The position numbers and the translations under genes were made by a program. A stretch of 19,983 nt of DNA from a virus (lineage: Duplodnaviria; Heunggongvirae; Uroviricota; Caudoviricetes). The stretch lies in the IMG/VR virus record IMGVR_UViG_2703718843_000007. One strand, written 5' to 3'. The notes under the pieces are model-generated. The model did not search any database, was not told where the DNA came from, and saw nothing but the letters and a program-made list of their open reading frames with translations. Shown here one piece after another: positions 786-19,983 of this stretch (positions within the stretch are counted from its first letter, which is position 1; each line of letters opens with the position of its first letter).

Positions 786-1529
786 TCAGATTCCCTGGTG
801 AGTAAGAATTTTACTTTCTGAACTGCTCTGAGAGTATTGACTTGGAGAAACACCAAAATAACGTCTAAATACATAAGTAAAGTATGAGACACTGGCATAA
901 CCACAGACCTTAGCTACTTTACTAATAGGATAACAACGAGTGCTGAGTAAATATTCAGCCATTTGCATCCTCTCATCAAGTATGATCTTACTGAATGATA
1001 CCCCCTCTTCTTTCAATTTCCTCTTTAGTAAACTTTCGCTGAGATATAATCTTGATGATATATCCTTAAGACGCCATGGTGCAGATAAATCCGTATGAAT
1101 AATCGTTTTAACTTTAGCCCCTGTGCTTTTCAAACATTCAAACAGAAATACTCCAAATTGTTTTTCAGAAGAAAATGCAGAGAGACATGTAAAAGCAATA
1201 GACTCATCAAAAATTTCTATGTATTCAGCACAGTGATTAGCCCAACTAATTAATCCTTTAATTAAACTGAAGTCAGCAAAGTTTATTTTTAAATAAGATG
1301 GATATTCCCTACAATCAGAAATATCCCTTAAGTTATTAGCTTTCAAATAGCGACTAATAAACTCAGCGCCAAAATCCGCCACTATCACTCTTTCAGGATA
1401 TGTCAGGAAAAAATCTCTAGAGCTAGAGTCGACAAGTACAGATGAACCTCTCTCCAGAAACACACTCTCTTTTCCGAAATAAACATCAAAGGACTCCAAA
1501 ATCAATATAACTGAACATGTAGTTGCCAT
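786..1529 (-). CDS. AraC-family transcriptional regulator, AppY-like
   Basis: 247 aa from ATG at 1529 (ORF track starts at a GTG at 1538). C-terminal AraC helix-turn-helix WRLKDISSRLYLSESLLKRKLKEEGVSFSKIILDERMQMAEYLL...CGYASVSYFTYVFRRYFGVSPSQY; overall pattern resembles prophage-borne AppY as recalled. AT-rich gene. Confidence 0.75.
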   Translation of the reverse strand: MATTCSVILILESFDVYFGKESVFLERGSSVLVDSSSRDFFLTYPERVIVADFGAEFISRYLKANNLRDISDCREYPSYLKINFADFSLIKGLISWANHCAEYIEIFDESIAFTCLSAFSSEKQFGVFLFECLKSTGAKVKTIIHTDLSAPWRLKDISSRLYLSESLLKRKLKEEGVSFSKIILDERMQMAEYLLSTRCYPISKVAKVCGYASVSYFTYVFRRYFGVSPSQYSQSSSESKILTHQGI

Positions 1530-2113
1530 ATCATCCACCCAACTTAACTGAAACCAGGATGAAGTATATGCATATAAAGTTCACTTTGCCAAACTTCAGT
1601 ATAAAAAACCACATAAAAAATAGGGTGTGATAAAAAATACCGTAACAATAAAGCAAAGGATTATAAATTCCGTTACAGTTACAAATGATACTCAAGAAAC
1701 AATTCCTTAGGAAAAACTTATTTACAGCCAATAAGTAAGACACTTATATGATATCAAGTTTTCATAAAACATAACTAGGCTAAATAGCTGCGCCTAATAC
1801 CGCTACACTTTTGCCAGCCCATGTTTGCCTCCGGGTATTGACCCCTTCTCTACGCAACTTCAGTTCCCACCACCAACTTTGCGGCAGCTTTGTAGGATCA
1901 ATGTCTAAAAGAATAATGGTGACCGATAAGAAAACGACTGAATAACTGCAAATTTTCGCTCAAAACCTTCCTGTCAGATCCATAGCGAATCAAGTGCTGA
2001 ATGTCACAGTATCGAACAGAAAACAGTGACGATCTAACCCTTCAAGAATATTCTACGATTGTTCTGTTTAGGAAAAGCAAGGCGGGAAGTCGGGAGATAA
2101 GTCATTGATAAAG

Positions 2114-2175
2114 TGGCGGAGAGAGGGGGATTTGAACCCCCGGTAGAGTTGCCCCTACTCCGGTTTTCGAGACCG
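2114..2175 (-). other. 3' fragment (about 62 nt) of tRNA-Ser(CGA): anticodon stem-loop, long variable arm, T-arm, acceptor 3' strand and CCA; 5' half absent. Likely attachment-site remnant
   Basis: Reverse complement reads CGGTCTCGAAAACCGGAGTAGGGGCAACTCTACCGGGGGTTCAAATCCCCCTCTCTCCGCCA. Anticodon loop CUCGAAA, T-loop GGTTCAAATCC. Sequence 5' of it does not form a D-arm. Confidence 0.75.
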
Positions 2176-2667
2176 ATGATACAGAGTCGAAAAATCAAAG
2201 AGTTAAAAATTTTTCTTGGAATAAATGTCTTTAAATCGTACACGAAAAATCAATGAATTACATAACATTAAAGAAGAATATTCCAAGCCTTCTTGAGGCT
2301 ACCACCTGTTTTCAGGTGTCATTCAGACGTGATTTGCCCCAGATTGGGAAAGCACGCTTTTTTCTCAGCTATCGTCCTCTTATTTTGCCGTTACATTTCT
2401 TTTTGCACTCTAATGATTAATTTACAATAATAATATCGGTAATTATTGAGTAATAATAAATTGATTATTGCAAATGTAATTTAATTCCATCTTAGCGTTA
2501 TATTCCAATCTTTAATCTCCGCATGGAACAAGTTGCATGCGTGACTATATTAAGACAACTTATAACCACCAAAACATTTGCTTTGCAAGCAAAAACAGTG
2601 ACCATTGACTCTAAGAAAATTCCGATCTATTGTTAGGGTCATCAAAGTTACTTAACAGTATTCCGAA

Positions 2668-2769
2668 ATGAAAATACAAAGCAAGCTAATTGTCTTATTA
2701 AACATTATTATTGCATTTATATTATTTGAGCTTTTAGCTCAAAAATTTGGTTTGAGTACATTATTTTAA
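2668..2769 (+). CDS. Possible small hydrophobic peptide (33 aa, one predicted transmembrane helix); speculative
   Basis: ATG at 2668, translation MKIQSKLIVLLNIIIAFILFELLAQKFGLSTLF. No clear Shine-Dalgarno; AT-rich DNA produces such ORFs by chance. Confidence 0.15.
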   Translation: MKIQSKLIVLLNIIIAFILFELLAQKFGLSTLF

Positions 2770-2917
2770 AGCAAGGTAAACAATATCGGGCACTCTAGTT
2801 TTTATAATTAACAATTAAACGTCCATAAAATGTTATTTACTTTTCTTCGCTATTGTCACATCTTAATATAGTGGCTTACGCCACTCTACTTTCATCACAT
2901 TTTGTACGTTTATGTAC

Positions 2918-2956
2918 TCGCCATGAAGCTCTTTCATGGCGATTTTTATTCTTAAT
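2918..2956 (+). terminator. Intrinsic terminator-like hairpin in AT-rich ORF-poor DNA
   Basis: TCGCCATGAA-GCTCT-TTCATGGCGA (10-bp stem) followed by TTTTTATTCTT. Confidence 0.4.
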
Positions 2957-3033
2957 CCAAGAACATACTCCCTATCTATAGCAAAATCACTTTTTGAACA
3001 AAAGAATAACGTATTTAGGTAATCATTACGAAT

Positions 3034-5355: not shown

Positions 5356-5645
5356 ATCATAACGTCCGGTTTCTTCCGTGTCAGCACCGGGGCGTTGGCA
5401 TAATGCAATACGTGTACGCGCTAAACCCTGTGTGCATCGTTTTTAATTATTCCCGGACACTCCCGCAGAGAAGTTCCCCGTCAGGGCTGTGGACATAGTT
5501 AATCCGGGAATACAATGACGATTCATCGCACCTGACATACATTAATAAATATTAACAATATGAAATTTCAACTCATTGTTTAGGGTTTGTTTAATTTTCT
5601 ACACATACGATTCTGCGAACTTCAAAAAGCATCGGGAATAACACC

Positions 5646-5939
5646 ATGAAAAAAATGCTACTCGCTACTGCGCTGGCCCTGCTTATTACAGGATGTGCTC
5701 AACAGACGTTTACTGTTCAAAACAAACCGGCAGCAGTAGCACCAAAGGAAACCATCACCCATCATTTCTTCGTTTCTGGAATTGGGCAGAAGAAAACTGT
5801 CGATGCAGCCAAAATTTGTGGCGGCGCAGAAAATGTTGTTAAAACAGAAACCCAGCAAACATTCGTAAATGGATTGCTCGGTTTTATTACTTTAGGCATT
5901 TATACTCCGCTGGAAGCGCGTGTGTATTGCTCACAATAA
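5646..5939 (+). CDS. borD: Bor outer-membrane lipoprotein (serum-resistance, lysogenic-conversion type)
   Basis: 97 aa MKKMLLATALALLITGCAQ... with lipobox LITGC; opposite in orientation to the lysis genes, as in lambda. Confidence 0.9.
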   Translation: MKKMLLATALALLITGCAQQTFTVQNKPAAVAPKETITHHFFVSGIGQKKTVDAAKICGGAENVVKTETQQTFVNGLLGFITLGIYTPLEARVYCSQ

Positions 5940-5970: not shown

Positions 5971-6432
5971 CTATCTGCACTGCTCATTAATATACTTCTG
6001 GGTTCCTTCCAGTTGTTTTTGCATAGTGATCAGCCTCTCTCTGAGGGTGAAATAATCCCGTTCAGCGGTGTCTGCCAGTCGGGGGGAGGCTGCATTATCC
6101 ACGCCGGAGGCGGTGGTGGCTTCACGCACTGACTGACAGACTGCTTTGATGTGCAACCGACGACGACCAGCGGCAACATCATCACGCAGAGCATCATTTT
6201 CAGCTTTCGCATCAGCTAACTCCTTCGTGTATTTTGCATCGAGCGCAGCAACATCACGCTGACGCATCTGCATGTCAGTAATTGCCGCGTTCGCCAGCTT
6301 CAGTTCTCTGGCATTTTTGTCGCGCTGGGCTTTGTAGGTAATGGCGTTATCACGGTAATGATTAACAGCCCATGACAGGTAGACGATGATGCAGATAACC
6401 AGAGCGGAGATAATCGCGGTTACTCTGTTCAT
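5971..6432 (-). CDS. rzpD: Rz inner-membrane spanin
   Basis: 153 aa [40 protein letters not shown]...; start ATG overlaps the endolysin stop (ATGA). Confidence 0.9.
6030..6212 (-). CDS. rzoD: Rz1 outer-membrane lipoprotein spanin, embedded in the +1 frame of Rz
   Basis: 60 aa [60 protein letters not shown]; lipobox VVGC and proline-rich region. Confidence 0.85.
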
Positions 6433-6926
6433 TGCTGACCCCACAAACAGATTTCACGCTCAATCTCACGACGAGTCATGAGACCTTTCCATTGCTTACC
6501 GCCAGCATATGTCCAGCGACGTAGCTGATCACATGCGCCTTTGATATCGCCCTGGTTTATTTTGCGAAGAAGCGTCGATGTTCTGAAATTGCCAGCACCC
6601 ACGTTGTAAACGAATGAGTAAAGAGCGCCGCGCGTTGTTTCCGGTATATCGACTTTGATGTACGGGTTAATTTGTCTGGCGACAGTGGCAAGGTCTTTAT
6701 TCAAGAGTGCTTTGCATTCTGCTTTGGTATACGTTTTACCGAGCATGATGTCTTTTCCGGTGTGTCCGTGACATACAGTCCATACGCCAACGATATCTTT
6801 GTATGGTACGTAGCTGACACCTTCCAGACCATCGTTACCACTTGGGCCAGTAATTAACACTGATGCTATAGCAATTGCTCCGCCACCAATAGCAGCAGCA
6901 ACGGCTTTTCGTAATGATGGAGGCAT
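6429..6926 (-). CDS. rrrD: SAR (signal-anchor-release) endolysin, phage 21 R type, T4-lysozyme fold
   Basis: 165 aa [30 protein letters not shown]... (Gly/Ala-rich N-terminal SAR domain) followed by lysozyme motifs; start overlaps the holin stop (TAATG). Confidence 0.9.
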
Positions 6927-7141
6927 TATTCACCTCTCGCAGCCTTGCGCTTATCTTCTTTAATCTTGAAATAAAGGTTTGTCAGGTACGTCAGCAGGCC
7001 AAATACCAGGCTACCCAGCACACCTATTGCTGCCCACTGTGAGGGCGTGACTTTATCGAGCAGCTGTAAAAACCAGTAACCGGCACTACCTGCTGAGGTG
7101 CCATAGGCGACACCCGTTGTTAACTTATCCATGGATTTCAT
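6926..7141 (-). CDS. essD: Class II holin, S21 (pinholin) type with dual-start motif
   Basis: 71 aa [71 protein letters not shown]; GAGGTG RBS. The ORF track's upstream extension is unlikely. Confidence 0.9.
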
Positions 7142-7267
7142 AACCCCACCTCGCAGACAAAGCGGGTGTAAATTGAGGGAATACAACGTATCGCAAAAAA
7201 GCAGAAACGTAACAGACTCGGAGTCAGTGAATAACTCAGGTATTGGGTTATCAGCTAATATCGAGAC

Positions 7268-7302
7268 TCAAAAAATGGAAAAACCCGCTCGACGGCGGGT
7301 TT
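7268..7302 (-). terminator. Intrinsic terminator on the late (minus) strand upstream of the lysis cassette; tR'-like
   Basis: Minus-strand RNA reads AAACCCGCC-GUCGA-GCGGGUUU followed by UUCCAUUUUUU. Confidence 0.5.
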
Positions 7303-7728
7303 AAGCTGTGTGACGAAGTAACCACTCTTAACAGCATAACCAATTTTTTACGTACGTAAACCACTAAATGATATTTGCGAGAATGCTACCGAGTATTGAA
7401 AACACCACTACAAATACATAAGCAAATCTCAACAAATAACCAACAAATAATTTCCAGCGTTATTTTTAGCTGGTTTAAATTGAATCTTCAAATTATAGAG
7501 CACTTATAAATAACAGCCATTAATATAAATTGGCTAATAGATTTATTTTTATTCAGCCAAGAGCCATGAATAGGATTCGATAGAAAAAGTTCAGATAAAA
7601 ATAGAGATCTACTTCACAAATCAAATGAGAAACCAAAACTTACATCTTGAAATAATCACATTGATTAGATGAATATTTATCGCGCAGTGACATCATTTTT
7701 TAATAATAGTTCAAAAAAAGGGCTCACG

Positions 7729-8811
7729 ATGAAAAAATTAACAGTGGCAATTTCTGCTGTAGCTGCATCAGTACTGATGGCGATGTCTGCTCAGGCAGCT
7801 GAAATTTATAATAAAGACAGTAACAAGCTGGATCTGTACGGGAAAGTTAATGCTAAGCACTACTTCTCCTCTAATGATGCAGATGATGGTGATACTACTT
7901 ATGCCCGTCTTGGCTTCAAAGGTGAAACCCAAATCAACGATCAACTGACTGGTTTCGGTCAGTGGGAATATGAATTCAAAGGCAACCGCGCTGAATCTCA
8001 AGGTTCCTCCAAAGATAAAACCCGTCTTGCCTTCGCTGGCCTGAAATTCGGTGACTACGGCTCCATCGATTATGGCCGTAACTACGGTGTAGCATACGAT
8101 ATTGGTGCATGGACCGACGTTCTGCCAGAATTCGGTGGCGATACCTGGACCCAAACAGATGTATTCATGACTGGTCGCACCACAGGTGTTGCAACTTATC
8201 GTAACAATGACTTCTTTGGTCTGGTTGATGGTCTGAACTTTGCTGCTCAGTATCAGGGTAAAAATGACCGCACTGACGTAACTGAAGCTAATGGTGATGG
8301 TTTCGGTTTCTCCACTACTTATGAGTATGAAGGATTCGGTGTAGGTGCAACCTATGCTAAATCTGACCGCACTAATAATCAGGTTATCTACGGTAACAAC
8401 AGCCTGAATGCATCTGGTCAAAATGCTGAAGTATGGGCAGCTGGTCTGAAATATGATGCGAACAACATCTATCTGGCTACCACCTATTCTGAAACCCAGA
8501 ACATGACTGTTTTTGGTAATAACCATATTGCCAACAAAGCACAAAACTTCGAAGTAGTTGCACAATATCAGTTCGACTTCGGTCTGCGTCCGTCCGTTGC
8601 TTACCTGCAATCTAAAGGAAAAGACTTGGGTGCGTGGGGTGATCAGGACCTGGTTGAATATATTGATGTAGGTGCAACCTATTACTTCAACAAAAATATG
8701 TCCACTTTTGTTGATTACAAAATCAACCTGATTGATAAGAGCGATTTCACGAAAGCATCTGGCGTTGCTACCGATGATATCGTTGCTGTAGGTATGGTTT
8801 ACCAGTTCTAA
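7729..8811 (+). CDS. nmpC: General porin of the OmpC/OmpF family, NmpC/Lc type (prophage-encoded)
   Basis: 360 aa precursor [23 protein letters not shown]|[17 protein letters not shown]... ending ...VAVGMVYQF. Intact; oriented opposite to Q and the lysis genes. Confidence 0.9.
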
Positions 8812-8947
8812 TTTGATTACTAAAAGATATGTTGCGGGAGGCTTTGCCTCCCCAACATATAAGTGGCTCCCTCAAGCCACTTCCTTTAGGAGCACAACCT
8901 TGCTTCTAACTATATAAACCTTCTGTTATATATTACCCTTTATTTTT

Positions 8948-8976
8948 GGGGGCGTCTCAACGCCCCATTTTTAATA
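8948..8976 (+). terminator. Intrinsic terminator for the porin transcript
   Basis: GGGGCGT-CTCA-ACGCCCC followed by ATTTTTAATAATTTTT; located between the convergent porin and Q genes. Confidence 0.6.
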
Positions 8977-8999
8977 ATTTTTAGTAAACAATTGGCATA

Positions 9000-9383
9000 T
9001 TAATTAGAGTTATTAACAACGATATCCATCTCTAACCGGATATCTAATGCCATTAACATCCCTTCAATTATACCCTCAGCCTTCTGTAACCTTTTCCCGA
9101 TATAACCATCAGAGCAGCAATGCTTACCTGCCAGTGACATGAATGTCATACCGACTACATAATAATCTACTAATAAATCGTGCAAATCGCTGTTGTTCTT
9201 TTTCAGACGGGCCATGCACCCGCAAATGATCATCGCGTCATCGTCACAACATTGCGGGCGAGATTTTACTTTTGAAGTAATTAATCCCTTAAAACCGGCG
9301 GCAATGGACGACCAGGTCACATCTTCATGATTATTAGCCGCCCACGCTCCCCAACGCTCAAGAACCATCTGAATATCACGCAT
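9000..9383 (-). CDS. quuD: Late-gene antiterminator Q (phage 21/82-like)
   Basis: 127 aa from ATG 9383 ([34 protein letters not shown]...[16 protein letters not shown]...). The ORF track offers a start 15 nt upstream at 9398. Confidence 0.9.
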
Positions 9384-9468
9384 CAACTTACTCCACAAAA
9401 ATCAGACCAGAACGCCAATTACAAGCAAAAATCAATAAAACAGTATTAGTTGATTGTTATCTCTGACT

Positions 9469-9591
9469 TCATACTCCTGCTCCTGTCAGGGTTTTGGCGT
9501 AATTCCTCAGTATTCGGTAATCGGTCAAAACAGAACTGGGGAAACGATATAAGCGCAGGCGCATCCAGCGGTGGCGAAGAAGTTCTGCCAT
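9469..9591 (-). CDS. ylcG: YlcG-like small protein
   Basis: 40 aa MAELLRHRWMRLRLYRFPSSVLTDYRILRNYAKTLTGAGV; not in ORF track (too short), translated by hand between Q and rusA. Confidence 0.65.
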   Translation of the reverse strand: MAELLRHRWMRLRLYRFPSSVLTDYRILRNYAKTLTGAGV

Positions 9592-9605
9592 ATTAAACTC
9601 AAACA

Positions 9606-9968
9606 TCATTCATTCCCCATTTCGGTGATGGTCAGTTCCAGCCTCCCACCTTTGGTAACAGGCATCTTCACAACGCGGTAATCAACGACCTGAGCATCAT
9701 CCAGCCAGAAACCTGCTTTGGTGAGTGCGTCAAAAGCGGCTTTTTGCAGATTATCCAGGTCACGGCGACGGCGATCCGGCATGTGGCACTCAATACGGAT
9801 TTTCACTGGCATAGCCAGGCCGATATCCAGCATTGCGTTTTTAATGATTCGGGTGACGTTATCGCGGTATGCCTGCCCTTCTGCGCTGATGTGTGTGCGC
9901 CCGCGATTATGGCGGTAATAGCGATTATTGCTCGGAGGCCAGGGTAATGTGATGCTGTAGGTATTCAC
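9606..9968 (-). CDS. rusA: RusA Holliday-junction resolvase
   Basis: 120 aa [38 protein letters not shown]... Confidence 0.95.
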
Positions 9969-10255
9969 GCCTTAATAACCCCCTCTTTCAGCCAGATAAC
10001 CTGTGTTCTCGCCATACCTTCCAGCGCGCATTCTTTTGCATATGCAGCATCGACAAAATGTGTGCGGCGGTCGATTTCGTCGTGGCAGGCAGAACATGCA
10101 ATGGTGGCAATCAGGTCTGGCGGTTTCGTACCGGTGCCGCACAATCCAGTCAGCCGGATATGTGCCAGTACAGACGTTTCAGGGTTGCCATTACATACGC
10201 CAGGGATTCTTACCTGGCATTCCCGACCACGCGCTGCTTTTCTCAAATCAGCCAT
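9965..10255 (-). CDS. ybcO: YbcO-like protein (DUF1364, predicted nuclease)
   Basis: 96 aa from ATG 10255 ([34 protein letters not shown]...[11 protein letters not shown]...). The ORF track start at 10294 is an upstream extension. Confidence 0.85.
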
Positions 10256-10418
10256 GACTCCTCCTTGCTGCCAGTCGCAACCATTTTTTATCAACCAGGC
10301 TGGCGGTATATCCGAGCAGTGTTGGTATTTCGGAAGGCTTCAGCTCCGGTTTACGCTTACGACGATTTGGTACTCTGTAGATGTGTCCGTTCATGACACG
10401 AATAAGCGGTGTAGCCAT
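10248..10418 (-). CDS. ninE: NinE-like small protein
   Basis: 56 aa [56 protein letters not shown], translated by hand; start overlaps ybcN stop (TAATG), stop overlaps ybcO start. Confidence 0.75.
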   Translation of the reverse strand: MATPLIRVMNGHIYRVPNRRKRKPELKPSEIPTLLGYTASLVDKKWLRLAARRSHG

Positions 10419-10873
10419 TACGCCTCCTGTTTGTCGCGGAGCTGCTGGAACTCGCAGCTCTGCGGAATAGTCAGGTGGCAGCCAATATTCACCGCCCAGG
10501 CTTCAACCTTACACAGGAAGATATACATCTCTCCGGTATCAAGATCGGAGGTATGGCGTAACGACTGGATAGTAGTGATTTCGCCGGTTACGACATCAAC
10601 CAGGTCCTTGGTTTCATAACCGAGGTATGTGTGTTTGAGAGCATCTTTTACCCATGCTGCGGTAGCGAACGATTTCCCCCTGCTGATGAGGTATTCACTG
10701 ATTTCGCTGTACCACATGTGGCTGAGTGCATTCTGGGAAAGACTGCGTTTCTCACGCCACGGTTTAAGCACCATGCGAAAGCATTTTCCGTCCTCCAGAT
10801 AAGGCTGGATCTGCTGGCCGATAGCGGTGAAGTTACCGCGATGCAGTTTGATGCCATCTTGTGGTAGGTTCAC
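10418..10873 (-). CDS. ybcN: YbcN-like protein (DUF1367)
   Basis: 151 aa; GTG start at 10873 preceded by GGAGG; [50 protein letters not shown]... Confidence 0.85.
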
Positions 10874-11063
10874 GCTTCACCTCCGCAGAGGTCAGACGCT
10901 GGATGCAAAAAATCGCAGGTGCATTTCTGCATCTGTGAAGGGAGAAGAGAGTTTGGATTGTATGTGCGCATAAACGTCCCCGTTTAGCGCAGAAGTCACC
11001 GGAGTTGTTCAAGCTCCGATGACTTTATTATTACGAATTGATTTTACAAAATCAAAAGGTATG

Positions 11064-11516
11064 TTAGTGACGCGGGTCTGTTATTATGCGAGAAGGGGTT
11101 CCGTATAAAACAAGGACCTTACTTCCTTGAGTAAATAACGGATCTTTGCCTTGAACAATGGTCATTAAATTCCCATTCTCAGTTTCGACAACATATTCCA
11201 TGCCTGTTTGTTTTGTTGCTGAAGATTCGATTGCTGCCCCGGCAATACCACCAATGACTGCACCACCAACGGCACCAACGATATTAGAACGAACTCCCCC
11301 ACCAAGCGCAGAACCAGCGGTTGCCCCCACGGCAGCCCCAGCAGTCCCGCCTAACGCGGAAGTCCCACTGATATCAACCCCCCTAGCACTAATAACTGTA
11401 CCAGCGATAGTTCGATTAACCATGCCCACAGAGCCAACAGAATAACTATTTGGCGATATATTTTGTGCGCATCCAACCAACACTAAGAGTGGAGCAATTA
11501 CGAATAATCGCTTCAT
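11064..11516 (-). CDS. Lipoprotein with glycine-zipper segment (SlyB/Pcp/17-kDa-antigen-like architecture), function unknown
   Basis: 150 aa MKRLFVIAPLLVLVGCAQ... (lipobox LVGC), Gly/Ala-rich zipper GGTAGAAVGATAGSALGGGVRSNIVGAVGGAVIGGIAGAAI, then C-terminal beta-rich segment. Start overlaps the stop of the upstream lipoprotein gene (ATGA). Confidence 0.8.
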   Translation of the reverse strand: MKRLFVIAPLLVLVGCAQNISPNSYSVGSVGMVNRTIAGTVISARGVDISGTSALGGTAGAAVGATAGSALGGGVRSNIVGAVGGAVIGGIAGAAIESSATKQTGMEYVVETENGNLMTIVQGKDPLFTQGSKVLVLYGTPSRIITDPRH

Positions 11517-12073
11517 TTAGCTACCCTAACAGGAAACATTGGACGAGAAAGATCAACACTTTCTAATGCTTGCAAGAACTGCGTTATGTTGTTTTGCACC
11601 GCGCGATTAACAGATTCGCGTGCTCGAACAATACCGTAGAATGCGTAACTGGCTGGAACAGTACCGGTAGACTCAATATCCTGCGTATATATAATATCAC
11701 CATTCGCACGGTTGATTATTTCATACCTTGCAATTGCTTTAGTTGTCATTGAAACACCAAAAGCAGGAACGTCAAGAGCCAACACTTTAACATTTAAGCT
11801 AACCGTATTTGGTGAACTATCACGAAAAATAGTCATTCGGTCGAGTGCTTCCTGCAAAGATTCACGCCAAATTGGAGTTATAGCCTCCATACCAGCAGTG
11901 ATATCCCCTTTCTGCTCATCTGGACGAGCAAGTGATACCGTTAATGACTTAATTTCAGCATCTATTTTTTTCTGGCTAACTCCCACGTTAGGTGTTGAAA
12001 AATTCAATGGTGGCACACTAGCGCAACCTGTTAAAGAACCAATAATCATGGCTAATAATATTATCTTCTTCAT
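11513..12073 (-). CDS. Lipoprotein, function unknown; first gene of a two-gene lipoprotein operon
   Basis: 186 aa MKKIILLAMIIGSLTGCAS... (lipobox LTGC); AAGGT RBS 8 nt upstream of ATG 12073. AT-richer than the flanking phage genes. No family recognised by eye. Confidence 0.8.
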   Translation of the reverse strand: MKKIILLAMIIGSLTGCASVPPLNFSTPNVGVSQKKIDAEIKSLTVSLARPDEQKGDITAGMEAITPIWRESLQEALDRMTIFRDSSPNTVSLNVKVLALDVPAFGVSMTTKAIARYEIINRANGDIIYTQDIESTGTVPASYAFYGIVRARESVNRAVQNNITQFLQALESVDLSRPMFPVRVAK

Positions 12074-12329
12074 AAATTTACCTTATTGTTATAACCAAAG
12101 GAATTATAAAGTAAAAAAGTTCACTATCACTAGCCATTAACGACATCAATTTCAGAGAAACATGGTACTCATTTCCACAAATTTGACACAAGTCATTTTC
12201 ACCTACATATTCCATCATACTTGATGCATATGTTATTGAAGCCTCTATCCTATCCGTTCATAATAGCAATAGTTACCCGGGTGATAGTACCTCTATGATT
12301 ACTCGTCTTTCTGATTGATTGGATTAAAT

Positions 12330-12521
12330 ATGCGCGCCAAAATTTATCAACTTTCGTTATGGATATTTATTTCGTTTCTAGCGATCTATGCCTTTATTAT
12401 CTATAAAGGTTCTTATATTGGAGTAGCATTGCATCAAATTGCTTGGATCATCATTATTGCCTCTGGCTTGATTGCTAGGCTAACTAAACCAAAGCAAAAA
12501 CCAATTTCGTCCAATAATTAG
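12330..12521 (+). CDS. Small predicted two-helix membrane protein, divergent from the lipoprotein operon; hypothetical
   Basis: 63 aa from ATG 12330: MRAKIYQLSLWIFISFLAIYAFIIYKGSYIGVALHQIAWIIIIASGLIARLTKPKQKPISSNN. Two hydrophobic stretches, basic C-terminus; weak RBS. The ORF track starts at a TTG at 12315. Confidence 0.4.
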   Translation: MRAKIYQLSLWIFISFLAIYAFIIYKGSYIGVALHQIAWIIIIASGLIARLTKPKQKPISSNN

Positions 12522-12680
12522 ACATGTATTAAAAAAATGATATTTTTATGTACATAGTCTATTGAAAATTGCCGCGATAAAATGCCAACACCCGCTTCAT
12601 CGCGGCACTCTGGCGACACTCCTTGAAAATCAGATTCGTGCTCACCTTTCCTTCCCGTTCTTCCCTGGTAGCGAACCGGT

Positions 12681-13127
12681 AATCATCCGATCTGCGTTAC
12701 CGAGTGGATGGATGAATGCCGCCGCGAACCATTCAAAACCCGCGAAGGCAGAGAAATTACGGGGCCGTGGCAGTCGCATCCCAAACGGATGTTACGGCAT
12801 AAAGCCATGATTCAGTGTGCCCGTCTGGCCTTCGGATTTGCTGGTATCTATGACAAGGATGAAGCCGAGCGCATTGTCGAAAATACCGCATACACCGCAG
12901 AACGTCAGCCGGAACGCGACATTACTCCGGTTAACGATGAAACCATGCAGGAGATTAACACTCTGCTGATTGCCCTGGACAAAACATGGGATGACGACTT
13001 ATTGCCGCTCTGTTCCCAGATATTTCGCCGCGACATTCGCGCATCGTCAGAACTGACACAGGCCGAAGCAGTGAAAGCTCTTGGATTCCTGAAACAGAAA
13101 GCCACTGAGCAGAAGGTGGCAGCATGA
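12681..13127 (+). pseudogene. bet: bet (Red-beta single-strand annealing protein), C-terminal ~149 codons only; N-terminal ~110 codons replaced by unrelated DNA
   Basis: In-frame translation from ~12681 reads NHPICVTEWMDECRREPFKTREGREITGPWQSHPKRMLRHKAMIQCARLAFGFAGIYDK...[17 protein letters not shown], matching lambda Bet C-terminus as recalled. Upstream in-frame stop at 12669-12671; stop overlaps exo start (ATGA). Confidence 0.85.
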
Positions 13128-13804
13128 CACCGGACATTATCCTGCAGCGTACCGGGATCGACGTGAGAGCTGTCGAACAGGGGGATGATGCATGGCACAA
13201 ATTACGGCTCGGCGTCATCACCGCTTCAGAAGTTCACAACGTGATAGCCAAGCCCCGCTCAGGAAAGAAGTGGCCTGACATGAAAATGTCCTACTTCCAC
13301 ACCCTGCTGGCTGAGGTTTGCACCGGTGTGGCTCCGGAAGTTAATGCTAAGGCGCTGGCATGGGGAAAACAGTACGAGAACGACGCCAGAACCCTGTTTG
13401 AATTCACTTCCGGCGTGAATGTTACTGAATCCCCGATCATCTATCGCGACGAAAGTATGCGCACCGCCTGCTCTCCCGATGGTTTATGCAGTGACGGCAA
13501 TGGCCTTGAGCTGAAATGCCCGTTTACCTCCCGGGATTTCATGAAGTTCCGGCTCGGTGGTTTCGAGGCCATAAAGTCGGCTTACATGGCCCAGGTGCAG
13601 TACAGCATGTGGGTGACACGAAAAGATGCCTGGTACTTTGCCAACTATGACCCGCGTATGAAGCGTGAAGGACTGCATTATGTCGTGGTTGAGCGGGATG
13701 AAAAGTACATGGCGAGTTTTGACGAGATGGTGCCGGTGTTCATCGAAAAAATGGACGAGGCACTGGCTGAAATTGGTTTTGTATTTGGGGAGCAATGGCG
13801 ATGA
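13124..13804 (+). CDS. exo: Lambda exonuclease (Red-alpha)
   Basis: 226 aa [68 protein letters not shown]...GFVFGEQWR; near-identical to lambda Exo as recalled. Confidence 0.95.
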
Positions 13805-13983
13805 CGCATCCTCACGATAATATCCGGGTAGGCGCAATCACTTTCGTCTACTCCGTTACAAAGCGAGGCTGGGTATTTCCCGGCCTTTCTGTTATCCGAA
13901 ATCCACTGAAAGCACAGCGGCTGGCTGAGGAGATAAATAATAAACGAGGGGCTGTATGCACAAAGCATCTCCTGTTGAGTTAA
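13801..13983 (+). CDS. Lambda orf60a-like hypothetical protein
   Basis: 60 aa from ATG 13801 (ATGA overlap with exo stop): [60 protein letters not shown]. Confidence 0.7.
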
Positions 13984-15305: not shown

Positions 15306-15920
15306 ATGAAAAAATCAATACTAATTTTAGGGCTTACGTTAATTGTCTCATCTCAAATACCATCGGCAATGGCAAAAAATGAATCAAGACTTTGGGTTGT
15401 TGTTGATCGAACGGAAAGACATACCTGCCCTTCAAGTAAATGTGGAGTGGCTGGGAAACTATTTTTCAGGGAAGGCGTAGATTTTCTAGAAAAAAAAGGT
15501 GAATGGGTTCGTATAACTGAGCCATATTCAGCCTCATGTGTGGGAGGGGAAAGCGAATATATTAAAGAAGGTAATAAATCCTGCACAAGAAAAAACGGAA
15601 TCGTCAATGGCAAGTTTTCAGAATGGGTTAAACTTAGTGATCTTAGCAGTGAAAGGCCATCAGATCCTGCTGAAAATGCGAGCGGAGATGATACTTTAAT
15701 CAAAGGATCTGATGACTACCGTATATACAAAAAAGAGTTTTCTTCGGCAGCTAGGAAGTTAATAAACGAAGGGGTCTGCACGGAAAGCGACTTTAAGGAA
15801 ATCGGAGGGTGGATGGCATCAAGCAATAAGGGTAAAAACATCTATTTCACATATTGCGGAGGAATGACGTTGTCGAACAGAATATACCTAGACGTTAAAA
15901 GTGGAAAGACTTTTAGATAA
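15306..15920 (+). CDS. Secreted/periplasmic cysteine-containing protein of unknown function (moron inserted into the ea22 region)
   Basis: 204 aa; AAGGA RBS 7 nt upstream; Sec-type signal peptide MKKSILILGLTLIVSSQIPSAMA with AxA cleavage motif; 6 Cys in mature part; AT-rich; followed by a terminator. Confidence 0.8.
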   Translation: MKKSILILGLTLIVSSQIPSAMAKNESRLWVVVDRTERHTCPSSKCGVAGKLFFREGVDFLEKKGEWVRITEPYSASCVGGESEYIKEGNKSCTRKNGIVNGKFSEWVKLSDLSSERPSDPAENASGDDTLIKGSDDYRIYKKEFSSAARKLINEGVCTESDFKEIGGWMASSNKGKNIYFTYCGGMTLSNRIYLDVKSGKTFR

Positions 15921-17298: not shown

Positions 17299-17517
17299 AT
17301 GTACTTGACACTTCAGGAGTGGAACGCTCGCCAGCGACGCCCAAGAAGCCTTGAAACAGTTCGTCGATGGGTGCGCGAATGCAGGATATTCCCTCCTCCG
17401 GTTAAGGATGGAAGAGAATATCTGTTCCACGAATCAGCGGTAAAGGTTGACTTAAATCGACCAGTAACAGGTAGCCTTTTGAAGAGGATCAGAAATGGGA
17501 AGAAGGCGAAGTCATGA
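17299..17517 (+). CDS. xis: Excisionase Xis (lambda type)
   Basis: 72 aa MYLTLQEWNARQRRPRSLETVRRWVRECRIFPPPVKDGREYLFHESAVKVDLNRPVTGSLLKRIRNGKKAKS. Confidence 0.95.
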   Translation: MYLTLQEWNARQRRPRSLETVRRWVRECRIFPPPVKDGREYLFHESAVKVDLNRPVTGSLLKRIRNGKKAKS

Positions 17518-18565
17518 GCGCCGGGATTTACCCCCTAACCTTTATATAAGAAACAATGGATATTACTGCTACAGGGACCCAAGGACGGGTAAAGAGTTTG
17601 GATTAGGCCGAGACAGGCGAATCGCAATCACTGAAGCTATACAGGCCAACATTGAGTTATTTTCAGGACACAAACACAAGCCTCTGACAGCGAGAATCAA
17701 CAGTGATAATTCCGTTACGTTACATTCATGGCTTGATCGCTACGAAAAAATCCTGGCCAGCAGAGGAATCAAGCAGAAGACACTCATAAATTACATGAGC
17801 AAAATTAAAGCAATAAGGAGGGGTCTGCCTGATGCTCCACTTGAAGACATCACCACAAAAGAAATTGCGGCAATGCTCAATGGATACATAGACGAGGGAA
17901 AGGCGGCATCAGCCAAGTTAATCAGATCAACACTGAGCGATGCATTCCGAGAGGCTATGGCTGAAGGCCATATAACAACAAACCCGGTCGCAGCCACTCG
18001 CGCTGCAAAATCAGAGGTAAGGAGATCAAGACTTACGGCTGACGAATACCTGAAAATTTATCAAGCAGCAGAATCATCACCATGTTGGCTTAGACTTGCA
18101 ATGGAACTGGCTGTTGTTACCGGGCAGCGAGTTGGTGATTTATGCGAAATGAAGTGGTCTGATATCGTAGATGGATATCTTTATGTCGAGCAAAGCAAAA
18201 CAGGCGTAAAAATTGCCATCCCAACAACATTGCATGTTGATGCTCTCGGGATATCAATGAAGGAAACACTTGATAAATGCAAAAAGATTCTTGGCGGAGA
18301 AACCATAATTGCATCTACTCGTCGTGAACCGCTTTCATCCGGCACAGTATCAAGGTATTTTATGCGCGCACGAAAAGCATCAGGTCTCTCCTTCGAAGGG
18401 GATCCGCCAACCTTTCACGAGTTGCGCAGTTTGTCTGCAAGACTCTATGAGAAGCAGATAAGCGATAAATTTGCTCAACATCTTCTCGGGCATAAGTCGG
18501 ACACCATGGCATCACAGTATCGTGATGACAGAGGCAGGGAGTGGGACAAAATTGAAATCAAATAA
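17495..18565 (+). CDS. int: Tyrosine integrase Int (lambda type)
   Basis: 356 aa MGRRRSHERRDLPPNLYIRNNGYYCYRDPRTGKEFGLGRDRRIAITEAIQANIELFSGHKHKPLTARINSDN... with C-terminal catalytic region (HELRSLSARLYE...LLGHKSDTMASQY); start overlaps xis. Confidence 0.95.
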   Translation: MGRRRSHERRDLPPNLYIRNNGYYCYRDPRTGKEFGLGRDRRIAITEAIQANIELFSGHKHKPLTARINSDNSVTLHSWLDRYEKILASRGIKQKTLINYMSKIKAIRRGLPDAPLEDITTKEIAAMLNGYIDEGKAASAKLIRSTLSDAFREAMAEGHITTNPVAATRAAKSEVRRSRLTADEYLKIYQAAESSPCWLRLAMELAVVTGQRVGDLCEMKWSDIVDGYLYVEQSKTGVKIAIPTTLHVDALGISMKETLDKCKKILGGETIIASTRREPLSSGTVSRYFMRARKASGLSFEGDPPTFHELRSLSARLYEKQISDKFAQHLLGHKSDTMASQYRDDRGREWDKIEIK

Positions 18566-18699: not shown

Positions 18700-19983
18700 G
18701 TGAACACATTTTCAGTTTCCCGTCTGGCGCTGGCATTGGCTTTTGGCGTGACGCTGACCGCCTGTAGCTCAACCCCGCCCGATCAACGTCCTTCTGATCA
18801 AACCGCGCCTGGTACCTCTTCTCGCCCGATTCTGTCGGCAAAAGAAGCGCAGAATTTCGATGCTCAACACTATTTTGCATCCCTGACACCAGGTGCTGCA
18901 GCGTGGAATCCTTCCCCGATTACCCTGCCTGCGCAACCTGACTTTGTTGTCGGCCCGGCGGGCACTCAAGGTGTAACGCATACCACGATTCAGGCGGCGG
19001 TAGATGCGGCAATTATCAAGCGTACCAACAAGCGCCAGTATATTGCCGTGATGCCTGGTGAGTATCAGGGAACGGTATATGTCCCTGCCGCTCCGGGTGG
19101 AATTACTCTGTACGGTACAGGTGAAAAACCGATTGATGTGAAGATTGGGCTTTCCCTTGATGGTGGCATGAGCCCTGCCGACTGGCGTCACGACGTCAAC
19201 CCGCGCGGCAAATATATGCCAGGTAAACCAGCGTGGTATATGTACGATAGCTGCCAGAGCAAACGCAGCGACAGTATCGGTGTTCTCTGCTCTGCGGTCT
19301 TCTGGTCACAAAACAATGGCCTGCAACTGCAAAATCTGACCATCGAAAACACGCTGGGCGATAGCGTAGATGCAGGTAACCATCCGGCGGTGGCACTGCG
19401 TACTGATGGTGACCAGGTACAGATTAACAACGTTAACATTCTCGGTCGTCAGAACACCTTCTTTGTCACCAACAGCGGTGTGCAGAACCGTCTGGAAACA
19501 AATCGTCAGCCGCGTACGCTGGTGACCAACAGCTACATTGAAGGGGATGTGGATATCGTTTCTGGTCGCGGCGCAGTGGTGTTCGATAACACCGAATTCC
19601 GCGTGGTGAACTCACGTACTCAGCAAGAAGCGTATGTGTTTGCACCGGCTACGCTGTCCAACATTTACTACGGTTTCCTCGCCGTAAACAGCCGTTTCAA
19701 TGCTTTCGGTGATGGTGTGGCGCAACTGGGCCGCTCGCTGGATGTTGATGCCAATACCAACGGTCAGGTGGTGATCCGTGATAGCGCCATCAACGAAGGT
19801 TTTAACACGGCTAAACCGTGGGCCGATGCGGTGATCTCTAATCGTCCGTTTGCGGGTAATACCGGCAGCGTAGATGATAACGACGAAATACAGCGCAATC
19901 TGAATGACACTAACTACAACCGCATGTGGGAATACAATAACCGCGGCGTGGGTAGTAAAGTGGTTGCAGAGGCGAAGAAGTAA
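18700..19983 (+). CDS. ybhC: YbhC outer-membrane lipoprotein (pectinesterase-family fold, acyl-CoA thioesterase), chromosomal flank of attB-lambda
   Basis: 427 aa from GTG 18700 with GGAG RBS; MNTFSVSRLALALAFGVTLTACSSTPPDQRPSDQ... (lipobox LTAC); stop at window end. Confidence 0.9.
   Translation: MNTFSVSRLALALAFGVTLTACSSTPPDQRPSDQTAPGTSSRPILSAKEAQNFDAQHYFASLTPGAAAWNPSPITLPAQPDFVVGPAGTQGVTHTTIQAAVDAAIIKRTNKRQYIAVMPGEYQGTVYVPAAPGGITLYGTGEKPIDVKIGLSLDGGMSPADWRHDVNPRGKYMPGKPAWYMYDSCQSKRSDSIGVLCSAVFWSQNNGLQLQNLTIENTLGDSVDAGNHPAVALRTDGDQVQINNVNILGRQNTFFVTNSGVQNRLETNRQPRTLVTNSYIEGDVDIVSGRGAVVFDNTEFRVVNSRTQQEAYVFAPATLSNIYYGFLAVNSRFNAFGDGVAQLGRSLDVDANTNGQVVIRDSAINEGFNTAKPWADAVISNRPFAGNTGSVDDNDEIQRNLNDTNYNRMWEYNNRGVGSKVVAEAKK

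Follow-up and report, generated by a model that had tools for sequence, protein, structure and literature searches.

The IMG/VR viral record IMGVR_UViG_2703718843_000007, analysed here as one stretch of 19,983 nucleotides (hereafter, the window), belongs to a cryptic lambdoid prophage of the DLP12/PA-2 type that adjoins ybhC, as judged from the annotation of its counterpart in JNQH498, and carries on its minus strand two overlapping genes for lipoproteins of 186 and 150 amino acids (aa). We found that this pair is a horizontally mobile two-gene operon, present in E. coli as a lambdoid moron, and that its genes constitute a conserved, translationally coupled unit under strong purifying selection. 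The product of the downstream gene is a member of the SlyB family by both sequence and fold, in a distinct subfamily, and the product of the upstream gene represents an unnamed, highly conserved family that can be placed at the fold level only, among lipoproteins of the LptE/PqiC/PelC type. Under the reading that we consider best, and to which we give about an even chance of being correct, the two proteins would form a mobile two-part outer-membrane complex of the SlyB type, carried as a moron and reinforcing or changing the envelope of the lysogen.

An initial annotation, made from the DNA alone, had described two minus-strand lipoprotein genes sharing an ATGA overlap, and both open reading frames (ORFs), along with the corresponding tcat on the plus strand, were confirmed (Table 1). 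Each product starts with a signal peptide and a lipobox (SLTG-C17-AS in the 186-aa protein and VLVG-C16-AQ in the 150-aa protein); the residue following the lipobox Cys is Ala in both, and Asp occurs at position +2 in none of the scored loci of either family. By the E. coli Lol sorting rule, the lack of Asp at +2 predicts outer-membrane targeting, which is therefore the predicted destination of both families. Comparison with the Klebsiella oxytoca copies yielded proportions of synonymous differences (pS) of 0.77 and 0.85, that is, saturation of the synonymous sites, against proportions of nonsynonymous differences (pN) of 0.10 and 0.14; with pN so far below pS, both genes are genuine and evolve under strong purifying selection.

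The linkage of the two genes extends well beyond E. coli. Scanning 185,579 species genomes with exact peptide patterns, so that all counts are lower bounds, we obtained 75 hits for relatives of the 186-aa protein, and a SlyB-like gene lies directly downstream at 69 of these 75 species-representative loci, so that the gene-neighbourhood check suggested in the initial annotation turned up a conserved unit. At the 59 loci that allowed both starts to be scored, the predominant junction is the 4-nt overlap (40 loci), followed by a gap of no more than 4 nt (10 loci) and a 1-nt overlap (8 loci). From locus to locus, the divergence of one gene tracks that of the other (r = 0.89, a value reached in none of 2,000 permutations), which implies co-inheritance, not contact. 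There is no third conserved gene beside the pair, the recurrent extra ORFs being antisense shadows of the two genes, and the longer members among 150 family representatives carry unrelated C-terminal extensions. The literature that we searched, which left out most subscription-journal papers, contained nothing on the pair, on WP_000720581 or WP_000825400, or on the phage PhiR30_1 discussed below, in agreement with the earlier surmise that the pair is undescribed as a unit. At two Photorhabdus loci (L051 and L055, ~6870-7600), we observed, 3' of the 186-aa gene, an array of short repeats that translates as ..VHCRTGSLE.. and may be a repetitive extragenic element that took the place of the partner gene.

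The 150-aa protein aligns along its full length with E. coli SlyB (residues 2-149 with residues 3-155 of PDB 7ojf_A; phmmer, E 6e-14), and the same chain was the only match at E <= 0.001 when the model of the protein was compared with the PDB using Foldseek (E 1.8e-9, template modelling scores 0.59/0.63, 27% identity); the 7ojf entry, a cryo-electron microscopy structure, is titled 'SlyB13-BamA', and SlyB is also represented in the PDB by 7OJG. These two results bear out the proposal in the initial annotation that the second protein of the pair resembles SlyB and Pcp. The AlphaFold (AF2) model, built with 61 homologues, consists of strands, two helices (residues 55-71 and 75-100) and a small beta domain, and the Gly/Ala-rich segment at residues ~52-100 aligns with the glycine zipper of SlyB. 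The lipobox Cys (MKRLFVIAPLLVLVG-C16-AQ) is invariant, at the matching position, in the 61 family members. Many close homologues carry precomputed PF13488 or PF05433 domains and bear the name SlyB in the Joint Genome Institute annotation, and the window protein belongs to phrog_13877. The likeness to SlyB thus encompasses size (150 vs 155 aa), the lipobox, an N-terminal strand region, the glycine-zipper hairpin and a C-terminal beta domain. The differences are equally clear: members of the subfamily are 45-77% identical to the window protein across phyla, compared with ~27% identity to SlyB, and whereas slyB is a fixed chromosomal gene, the gene described here is mobile, phage-borne, coupled to an upstream partner and without a PhoP box. 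To our knowledge, slyB has no translationally coupled upstream partner.

The 186-aa partner, which had gone unrecognised in the initial annotation, indeed matches no curated family: there was no Pfam match at E <= 0.1 and no NCBIfam or PADLOC match, and the protein falls into a PHROG of unknown function. We collected 512 homologues, the best 120 of which are 59-87% identical to the query and, with one exception, lack any precomputed Pfam domain (119/120); a profile search over 1.84 billion cluster representatives recovered 985 relatives. In their source databases, homologues are named 'UDP-N-acetylglucosamine acyltransferase', 'YajG family lipoprotein', 'lipoprotein' or 'hypothetical'. The acyltransferase label has no support from family or fold and was rejected. 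YajG (Lipoprotein_16, PF03923) is comparable as an outer-membrane lipoprotein of similar size (192 vs 186 aa), but E. coli YajG scores 3.4e-52 on PF03923, whereas the 186-aa protein has no match to that family at E <= 0.1; the hhalign comparison of the 186-aa family profile with YajG (probability 82%, E 1e-5, 121 columns) is weak, covers the N-terminal ~130 residues, much of which is signal peptide, and leaves out the C-terminal third. Accordingly, we do not assign the protein to the YajG family.

At the fold level, the 186-aa protein displays an alpha/beta core of two helices and an antiparallel sheet on a lipid anchor, as in lipoproteins of the LptE/PqiC/PelC type. In the fold comparison, the highest value was obtained with XCC0632 (DUF330, PqiC-like; 13.3), followed by PelC (10.4), FlgT (10.1), LptE (9.8), PqiC (9.6), CsgG (9.2) and the TraT core (7.1). 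This similarity comes without a sequence signal (8-15% identity), and, unlike LptE, PqiC, PelC, CsgG and FlgT, the protein is paired with a SlyB-like protein. Its best-conserved parts are the segment PPLNFSVPNVG that follows the lipid anchor and a face of the last helix (R150, E153, S154, R157, Q160, N162), both of which may be interaction surfaces. Among the distant relatives of the domain are three proteins without the lipobox Cys, P0177 (644 aa), P0202 (539 aa) and P0230 (264 aa), the first two of which have long, charged, coiled-coil-like C-terminal extensions; the 186-aa domain is therefore not limited to lipoproteins paired with SlyB-like genes.

The hosts of the family include gamma-proteobacteria (Klebsiella oxytoca, Serratia, Edaphovirga, Photorhabdus, Xanthomonas, Stenotrophomonas, Luteimonas), beta-proteobacteria (Bordetella, Cupriavidus, Paraburkholderia, Massilia, Acidovorax), alpha-proteobacteria and a few metagenome-assembled genomes from Verrucomicrobia, Acidobacteria and Nitrospinales. 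The initial annotation had allowed for the possibility that these are housekeeping lipoproteins paired at a conserved chromosomal locus; looking for such a locus, we found that the pairing is conserved and the locus is not, the 75 species loci being distributed over 61 synteny groups. The survey of neighbours covered 150 flanking ORFs, called with a simple script, from 27 loci (27 of the 61 context groups): no Pfam family occurred more than twice, and integrases, recombinases, transposases and toxin-antitoxin pairs were frequent at individual loci. We also noted a gene for SRAP, a YedK-like SOS-response peptidase, directly upstream of the pair in Klebsiella oxytoca (L008, 4927-5658) and in an Alcaligenaceae genome (L087, 5440-6795); it is fused to a serine-recombinase domain in one of these two unrelated hosts, and all other neighbour families that occurred twice are generic enzymes.

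The pair was detected in none of 72,556 plasmids, in 1 of 50,697 deposited phage genomes and in 38 viral contigs of IMG/VR, 16 of which are not of the E. coli type. Its phage settings, seen in these and in metagenomic contigs and at least five in number, differ markedly: in a Pantoea-type siphophage, the pair is inserted inside the tail operon, between the tape-measure gene and gpM; in two high-GC phages, its neighbours are a cI-like repressor and a DNA methyltransferase; in one phage, it is found between the large terminase and anti-repressor (Ant) genes; in another, ~3 kb from a DnaB-type helicase; and in a lambdoid prophage of Salmonella, it shares the nin-type early region with four toxin-antitoxin pairs. 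This diversity implies several independent captures. The phage-borne and non-phage copies belong to one tight family (54-87% identity). Two of the three features of morons in the Juhala/Hendrix sense (PMC3594210) are apparent, namely, presence/absence polymorphism, with other cargo in the same slot of K-12 DLP12 and at least five phage settings, and deviant base composition, while for the third, a promoter and terminator belonging to the cassette itself, the scans yielded a single candidate promoter site (Table 1); in its varied phage settings, the pair shows textbook moron behaviour. The Salmonella enterica prophage (L129/L130, ~6200-12600) is in itself unusual for the density of its cargo, with PaaA2-ParE, MazE-PemK, Phd-YoeB and HigB-HigA around the pair; in L129, the upstream lipoprotein gene, with a call of just 107 aa, may be damaged.

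In E. coli, the pair was found in 280 of 5,426 complete genomes (~5%), always on the chromosome and in copies at least 99% identical, and it is the cargo of a specific slot, between ren and ylcH/ninB. We read the NCBI Prokaryotic Genome Annotation Pipeline (PGAP) annotation off the identical region in JNQH498 (window coordinate = L001 coordinate - 1127), which gave the gene order int, xis, ..., exo, 'bet-ren', the cargo, ylcH, ybcN (ninB), ninE, ybcO, rusA, ylcG and quuD, continuing with the porin gene, essD, rrrD, rzpD, bor, ybcV, ybcW, ylcI, a Nu1::Tfa fusion and an appY-like gene. Homology to K-12 DLP12 stops at 11057 and restarts at 12586 (blastn), and in K-12 the identical ren-to-ylcH/ybcN slot is filled with unrelated genes, emrE, ylcJ, ybcK, ybcL and ybcM, which include those for an efflux pump, a recombinase, a periplasmic protein and an AraC-type regulator. 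The cargo (11058-12585) has a G+C content of 0.40 and its flanks 0.50 and 0.52, so that the AT-richness recognised in the initial annotation is real.

The phage PhiR30_1 (PV340558; 47.4 kb, deposited as complete) has an identical pair, together with the small ORF described below, between intact ren and ninB, and also has exo, bet, gam, kil, cI, cro, cII, O and P. Window positions 9501-12683 correspond to 13723-10541 of PhiR30_1 (L002) at 98.6% identity, and positions 12681-13958 correspond to 4169-2893, the alignment resuming inside bet. Relative to PhiR30_1, the window therefore bears a simple deletion of 6,371 bp, with a 3-bp overlap at the junction, which removed the 5' part of bet, gam, kil, cI, cro, cII, O, P and the 5' part of ren; this later bet'-to-ren' deletion alone brought the cargo next to bet. 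The prophages of strains AMA1167 (L089) and GENOMIC22-004 (L090) likewise have the pair in the ren-ylcH/ninB slot and retain the repressor, cro, O, P, gam and bet, as do most of the 280 carriers (with cI, cro, O, P, gam and bet), the ren'-'bet junction being present in just 19 of them. The earlier view that the module occupies the slot of a deleted immunity and replication region does not survive this comparison, nor does its description as cargo next to the immunity region, given that O, P and ren intervene in the intact E. coli phage. The right boundary was correctly placed insofar as a breakpoint joins truncated bet; the module, however, does not abut bet, as a 123-nt remnant of ren lies in between. 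In both L089 (14255-15828 in AMA1167) and L090, a gene for a HipA-family kinase followed by a DUF3037 gene is located by the repressor, at the place of lambda rexAB; these are candidates for a toxin or abortive-infection pair.

How might this cargo act? According to one report, the glycine-zipper hairpins of SlyB span the outer membrane and form rings that enclose lipid together with BamA, LptD and porins under envelope stress (10.64898/2025.12.22.696046). A DLP12/PA-2-like lambdoid lineage carries the operon between ren and ylcH/ninB, and the cryptic prophage in the window later lost the bet'-to-ren' segment. We propose that translational coupling would supply the two proteins in roughly equal amounts to act together in the outer membrane. 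The 150-aa SlyB paralogue, with its lipid anchor, a predicted two-helix membrane hairpin formed by the glycine zipper and a small, presumably periplasmic beta domain, would, like SlyB, surround lipid and/or outer-membrane proteins with an alpha-helical ring or nanodomain, and the 186-aa protein would be a stoichiometric partner docked on the periplasmic or inner-leaflet side of that ring. The unusually high conservation of both sequences across classes would fit multiple fixed interfaces. The payoff for the lysogen would be a changed or more robust envelope, a lysogenic conversion in the manner of Bor, which is encoded in the same prophage, and any phage exclusion would be a consequence of envelope remodelling. 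As for expression, the pair has the same orientation as O-P-ren in the intact E. coli phage and so would at least be transcribed from pR in lytic growth.

Several observations weigh against this interpretation. The monomer model of the 150-aa protein reaches only a moderate predicted local distance difference test (pLDDT) score of 71, and its Pfam scores are below the respective cut-offs (Rick_17kDa_Anti, PF05433, residues 55-97, 21.1 vs 24.2 bits; PF13488, 16.9 vs 25). Contact between the 186-aa and 150-aa proteins is something we infer: no fused versions of the two domains, which would have served as a Rosetta stone, were found among the 150 family representatives, and the 186-aa gene lacks a SlyB-like partner at 6 of the 75 loci, two of them in Photorhabdus species, where the gene is followed by repeats. 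With regard to expression, the number of sigma-70-like sites in the region, as counted in a consensus scan, equals the shuffle expectation, and no clear terminator was detected in a scan 3' of the 150-aa gene (11064); the DNA upstream of the pair could not be aligned across four genera, and we accordingly rejected a conserved promoter. There being no convincing promoter or terminator and no conservation upstream, expression from a repressed or cryptic prophage is likewise what we infer. Regulation by PhoP, as for slyB, was rejected, because no PhoP box is present upstream of the pair in 12074-12330 and the nearby matches have two mismatches and occur at chance frequency. Finally, E. coli already has its own slyB, which leaves the benefit of a second copy unexplained.

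An alternative that we regard as possible, although unlikely, is that the pair is a dedicated device for superinfection or surface exclusion, in which an outer-membrane assembly masks or corrals a receptor or blocks the passage of DNA, with an effect that would be like that of the FhuA blockers Llp and Cor or of TraT, a ring-shaped surface exclusion lipoprotein. The repeated capture of the pair by unrelated temperate phages, adjacent to the tape-measure gene in one type and beside a cI-like repressor in two, speaks in favour of such a device. The tape-measure position of the Pantoea-type phages recalls the moron protein gp15 of HK97, an exclusion protein whose gene also adjoins the tape-measure gene and which derives from a bacterial envelope protein family, YebO (PMC3594210). 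Furthermore, the outer-membrane proteins that SlyB encloses are common phage receptors, and in E. coli the pair is carried by prophages of the PA-2/DLP12 type, which encode a porin and Bor as well.

Llp of T5, Cor of phi80, N15 and HK022, and gp15 of HK97 are, like the products of the pair, phage envelope proteins carried as morons, but they share no homology with it; they are single, small proteins specific to a phage or receptor, and gp15 resides in the inner membrane, whereas the pair is mostly found outside phages and is conserved across bacterial classes. Receptor-specific blockers are normally confined to phages that use the receptor in question, and most copies of the pair reside outside recognisable phages, in ordinary or island contexts. 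Nor is there any phage-specific divergence within the family, in contrast to that of gp15 from YebO. TraT, the serum-resistance protein of IncF plasmids, comprises an LptE-like core and two transmembrane helices that assemble into a decameric ring with a lipid plug, and physical interference is its presumed mode of action (PMC12658005); it originates from a chromosomal gene co-opted several times by plasmids and mobile elements (PMC11733297). The pair resembles TraT in being a lipoprotein system of mobile elements and might be said, by analogy and not by homology, to hold both TraT building blocks on two chains; TraT, however, unites the LptE-like core, two transmembrane helices and a beta-hairpin in a single chain, which neither protein of the pair does, and the Foldseek comparison of the 150-aa model with TraT gave no significant match (E 0.07).

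The defence tests were also negative. Neither protein has homology to PADLOC families at E <= 0.1 or to known exclusion proteins, and their PHROG matches are two function-unknown families. Among the 150 neighbour ORFs, defence matches amounted to one type IIG restriction-modification enzyme, one BstA and two mad2, the others being generic matches to helicases or cyclases, so that defence genes are not enriched at the 27 loci; we therefore rejected the identification of the pair as a known defence system. The mostly non-phage contexts, the lack of phage-specific divergence and the fitness cargo present in the same slot of DLP12 lead us to prefer envelope robustness over exclusion, and a phage-related benefit stays plausible in view of the several acquisitions by unrelated temperate phages.

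A bolder version of the exclusion scheme, which we rate as quite improbable, would be that the pair forms a two-component alpha-helical ring in the outer membrane, TraT-like or SlyB-like, serving mobile elements as a general exclusion or armour device with which temperate phages from many proteobacterial lineages seal the lysogen, or the lysing cell, against incoming DNA. Such a ring might work by caging a conserved outer-membrane machine or receptor. Were this to be true, it would define a new class of surface exclusion encoded by phages, with a SlyB paralogue and a partner of the LptE fold as its components.

We consider it still more doubtful that the pair is an ordinary envelope-maintenance factor, or an accessory in the handling of lipid, lipopolysaccharide or polysaccharide (working, for example, with LptDE, Pqi/Mla or a secretion pore), which hitch-hikes on mobile DNA without any role for phages. 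The folds closest to that of the 186-aa protein are those of export auxiliaries (DUF330/PqiC, LptE, PelC, CsgG), although, as noted, at a level of identity that carries no sequence signal; SlyB and YajG are among the nine lipoproteins that co-purified with LptDE in E. coli (PMC12065857), the pair adjoins pgaABCD in Xanthomonas nasturtii, and many loci have metabolic neighbours. On the other hand, none of the Lpt, Pqi, Pel and Csg genes (LptD, PqiAB, PelB, CsgEF), and no export or transport gene in general, recurs beside the pair in the neighbour survey. The patchy spread, with 75 hits (a lower bound) in 185,579 species genomes, argues against a core housekeeping function, and five or more independent insertions into phages would be hard to obtain by chance hitch-hiking.

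A toxin/antidote, abortive-infection or lysis-related lipoprotein pair, comparable to entericidins or spanins, appears very improbable. Glycine-zipper peptides can form pores, some of the loci lie among toxin-antitoxin modules, and the genes overlap, like Rz and Rz1; yet the 150-aa protein is a full-length SlyB homologue and no short pore peptide, PADLOC again gives no match, and toxin-antitoxin neighbours are merely typical of flexible regions. A spanin-like or lysis role was rejected on account of the complete, separate lysis cassette of the prophage (essD, rrrD and rzpD, ~5971-7186). The view that the module was inserted in place of the immunity and replication region, to which the window lends an appearance of truth because the module is the sole DNA between ninB/ylcH and truncated bet, can be dismissed almost completely in the light of the intact relatives that possess both, the ren remnant between module and junction, and the simple deletion confined to 19 carriers. 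What remains as the favoured interpretation is the two-part envelope complex outlined above.

Next to the pair, on the plus strand, lies the 63-aa ORF that the initial annotation had called a divergent small membrane-protein gene. The ORF and its hydrophobic stretches are there; it is, however, an orphan, with near-identical E. coli copies as its only relatives among 5.8 billion proteins, and no copy of the pair outside E. coli is accompanied by it. It is not among the genes called by PGAP, and in PhiR30_1 it is annotated as hypothetical. Being an orphan restricted to E. coli, it does not belong to the conserved module, and we rejected it as a component.

Table 1. Position of the lipoprotein gene pair, its surroundings and other features of the prophage in the window
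Feature	Position	Strand	Basis or remark
AraC-family regulator, 250 aa	789-1538	-	
Low-GC stretch (GC 0.29-0.35)	~800-3000		
Nu1::Tfa fusion ORF, 223 aa	3037-3705	-	
PhoP box	5577-5593	+	0 mismatches
bor	5646..5939		
Porin gene	7669-8811	+	
ybcN/ninB, left border of slot (conserved)	10418..10873	-	ORF list, PGAP, K-12 annotation
ylcH-like 33-aa ORF, left border of slot (conserved)	10870..10971	-	ORF list, PGAP, K-12 annotation
Cargo block replacing K-12 DLP12 emrE-ylcJ-ybcK-ybcL-ybcM between ren and ylcH	11058..12585		blastn vs K-12 DLP12
Downstream gene, 150-aa SlyB-family glycine-zipper lipoprotein, lipobox LVG-C16	11064..11516	-	ORF list, homology
Glycine-zipper segment, residues ~52-100, predicted two-helix hairpin	11217..11363	-	Pfam, AF2 helices, SlyB alignment
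ATGA stop/start overlap of the pair	11513..11516	-	TGA stop + ATG start; tcat on plus strand
Upstream gene, 186-aa lipoprotein, lipobox LTG-C17	11513..12073	-	ORF list
AT-rich intergenic region, GC 0.32	12074..12329		between pair and small ORF
Candidate sigma-70 promoter GTGATA-16-TATAAT (10/12)	12103..12130	-	ends 30 nt upstream of 186-aa start; weak
Orphan 63-aa ORF, two hydrophobic stretches (68 aa from TTG 12315)	12330..12521	+	ORF list
ren 3' remnant, 123 nt	12559..12681	-	PGAP annotation, JNQH498
Deletion junction ren'-'bet, alignments overlap 3 bp	12681..12683		alignment to PhiR30_1
bet, 5'-truncated (recT-type annotation)	12681..13127	+	ORF list, PGAP
exo, directly past truncated bet	13124..13804	+	ORF list, PGAP
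204-aa ORF	15306-15920	+	
int	17495-18565		
ybhC	18700-19983		

Other parts of the prophage show features of their own (Table 1). A perfect PhoP box, TGTTTAGGGTTTGTTTA, is located ~50 nt upstream of bor, which fits the membership of borD in the PhoP regulon. In the 223-aa ORF, residues 1-164 are a complete Nu1 terminase small subunit domain and residues 170-221 the C-terminal portion of a tail-fibre assembly protein, so that the whole head and tail region was lost in one deletion, the second large one in this prophage. At the place that appY occupies at the end of K-12 DLP12, there is a gene for a 250-aa AraC-family regulator, within a low-GC stretch that otherwise contains only short unassigned ORFs. 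Downstream of the Q antiterminator, the porin gene is intact, with a full-length Porin_1 match; in K-12 (nmpC) the same gene is broken up by IS5, and in JNQH498 it contains an internal stop. The positions of int and ybhC show that the element is integrated beside ybhC, in the neighbourhood of the lambda attachment site, whereas K-12 DLP12 is at argU; the int/xis end has been exchanged between otherwise similar prophages. Between exo and xis, where the DNA is AT-rich, a 204-aa ORF is without a match in Pfam and is annotated by PGAP as hypothetical in JNQH498.

Only recently were glycine-zipper lipoproteins of the SlyB type recognised to form alpha-helical rings and to organise the outer membrane during stress. 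To these, our analysis adds a distinct, strongly conserved SlyB subfamily that travels with an obligatory, uncharacterised partner of the LptE/PqiC fold as a 1-kb cassette, and corrects the widespread misannotation of that partner as 'UDP-N-acetylglucosamine acyltransferase' or as a member of the 'YajG family'. About 5% of complete E. coli genomes carry the pair, often within decayed prophages. If the two proteins do form a complex, it would be the first two-component version of a SlyB-type membrane architecture and a tractable case of phage-driven remodelling of the outer membrane, with possible effects on phage susceptibility, resistance to serum and antimicrobial peptides, and vesiculation.

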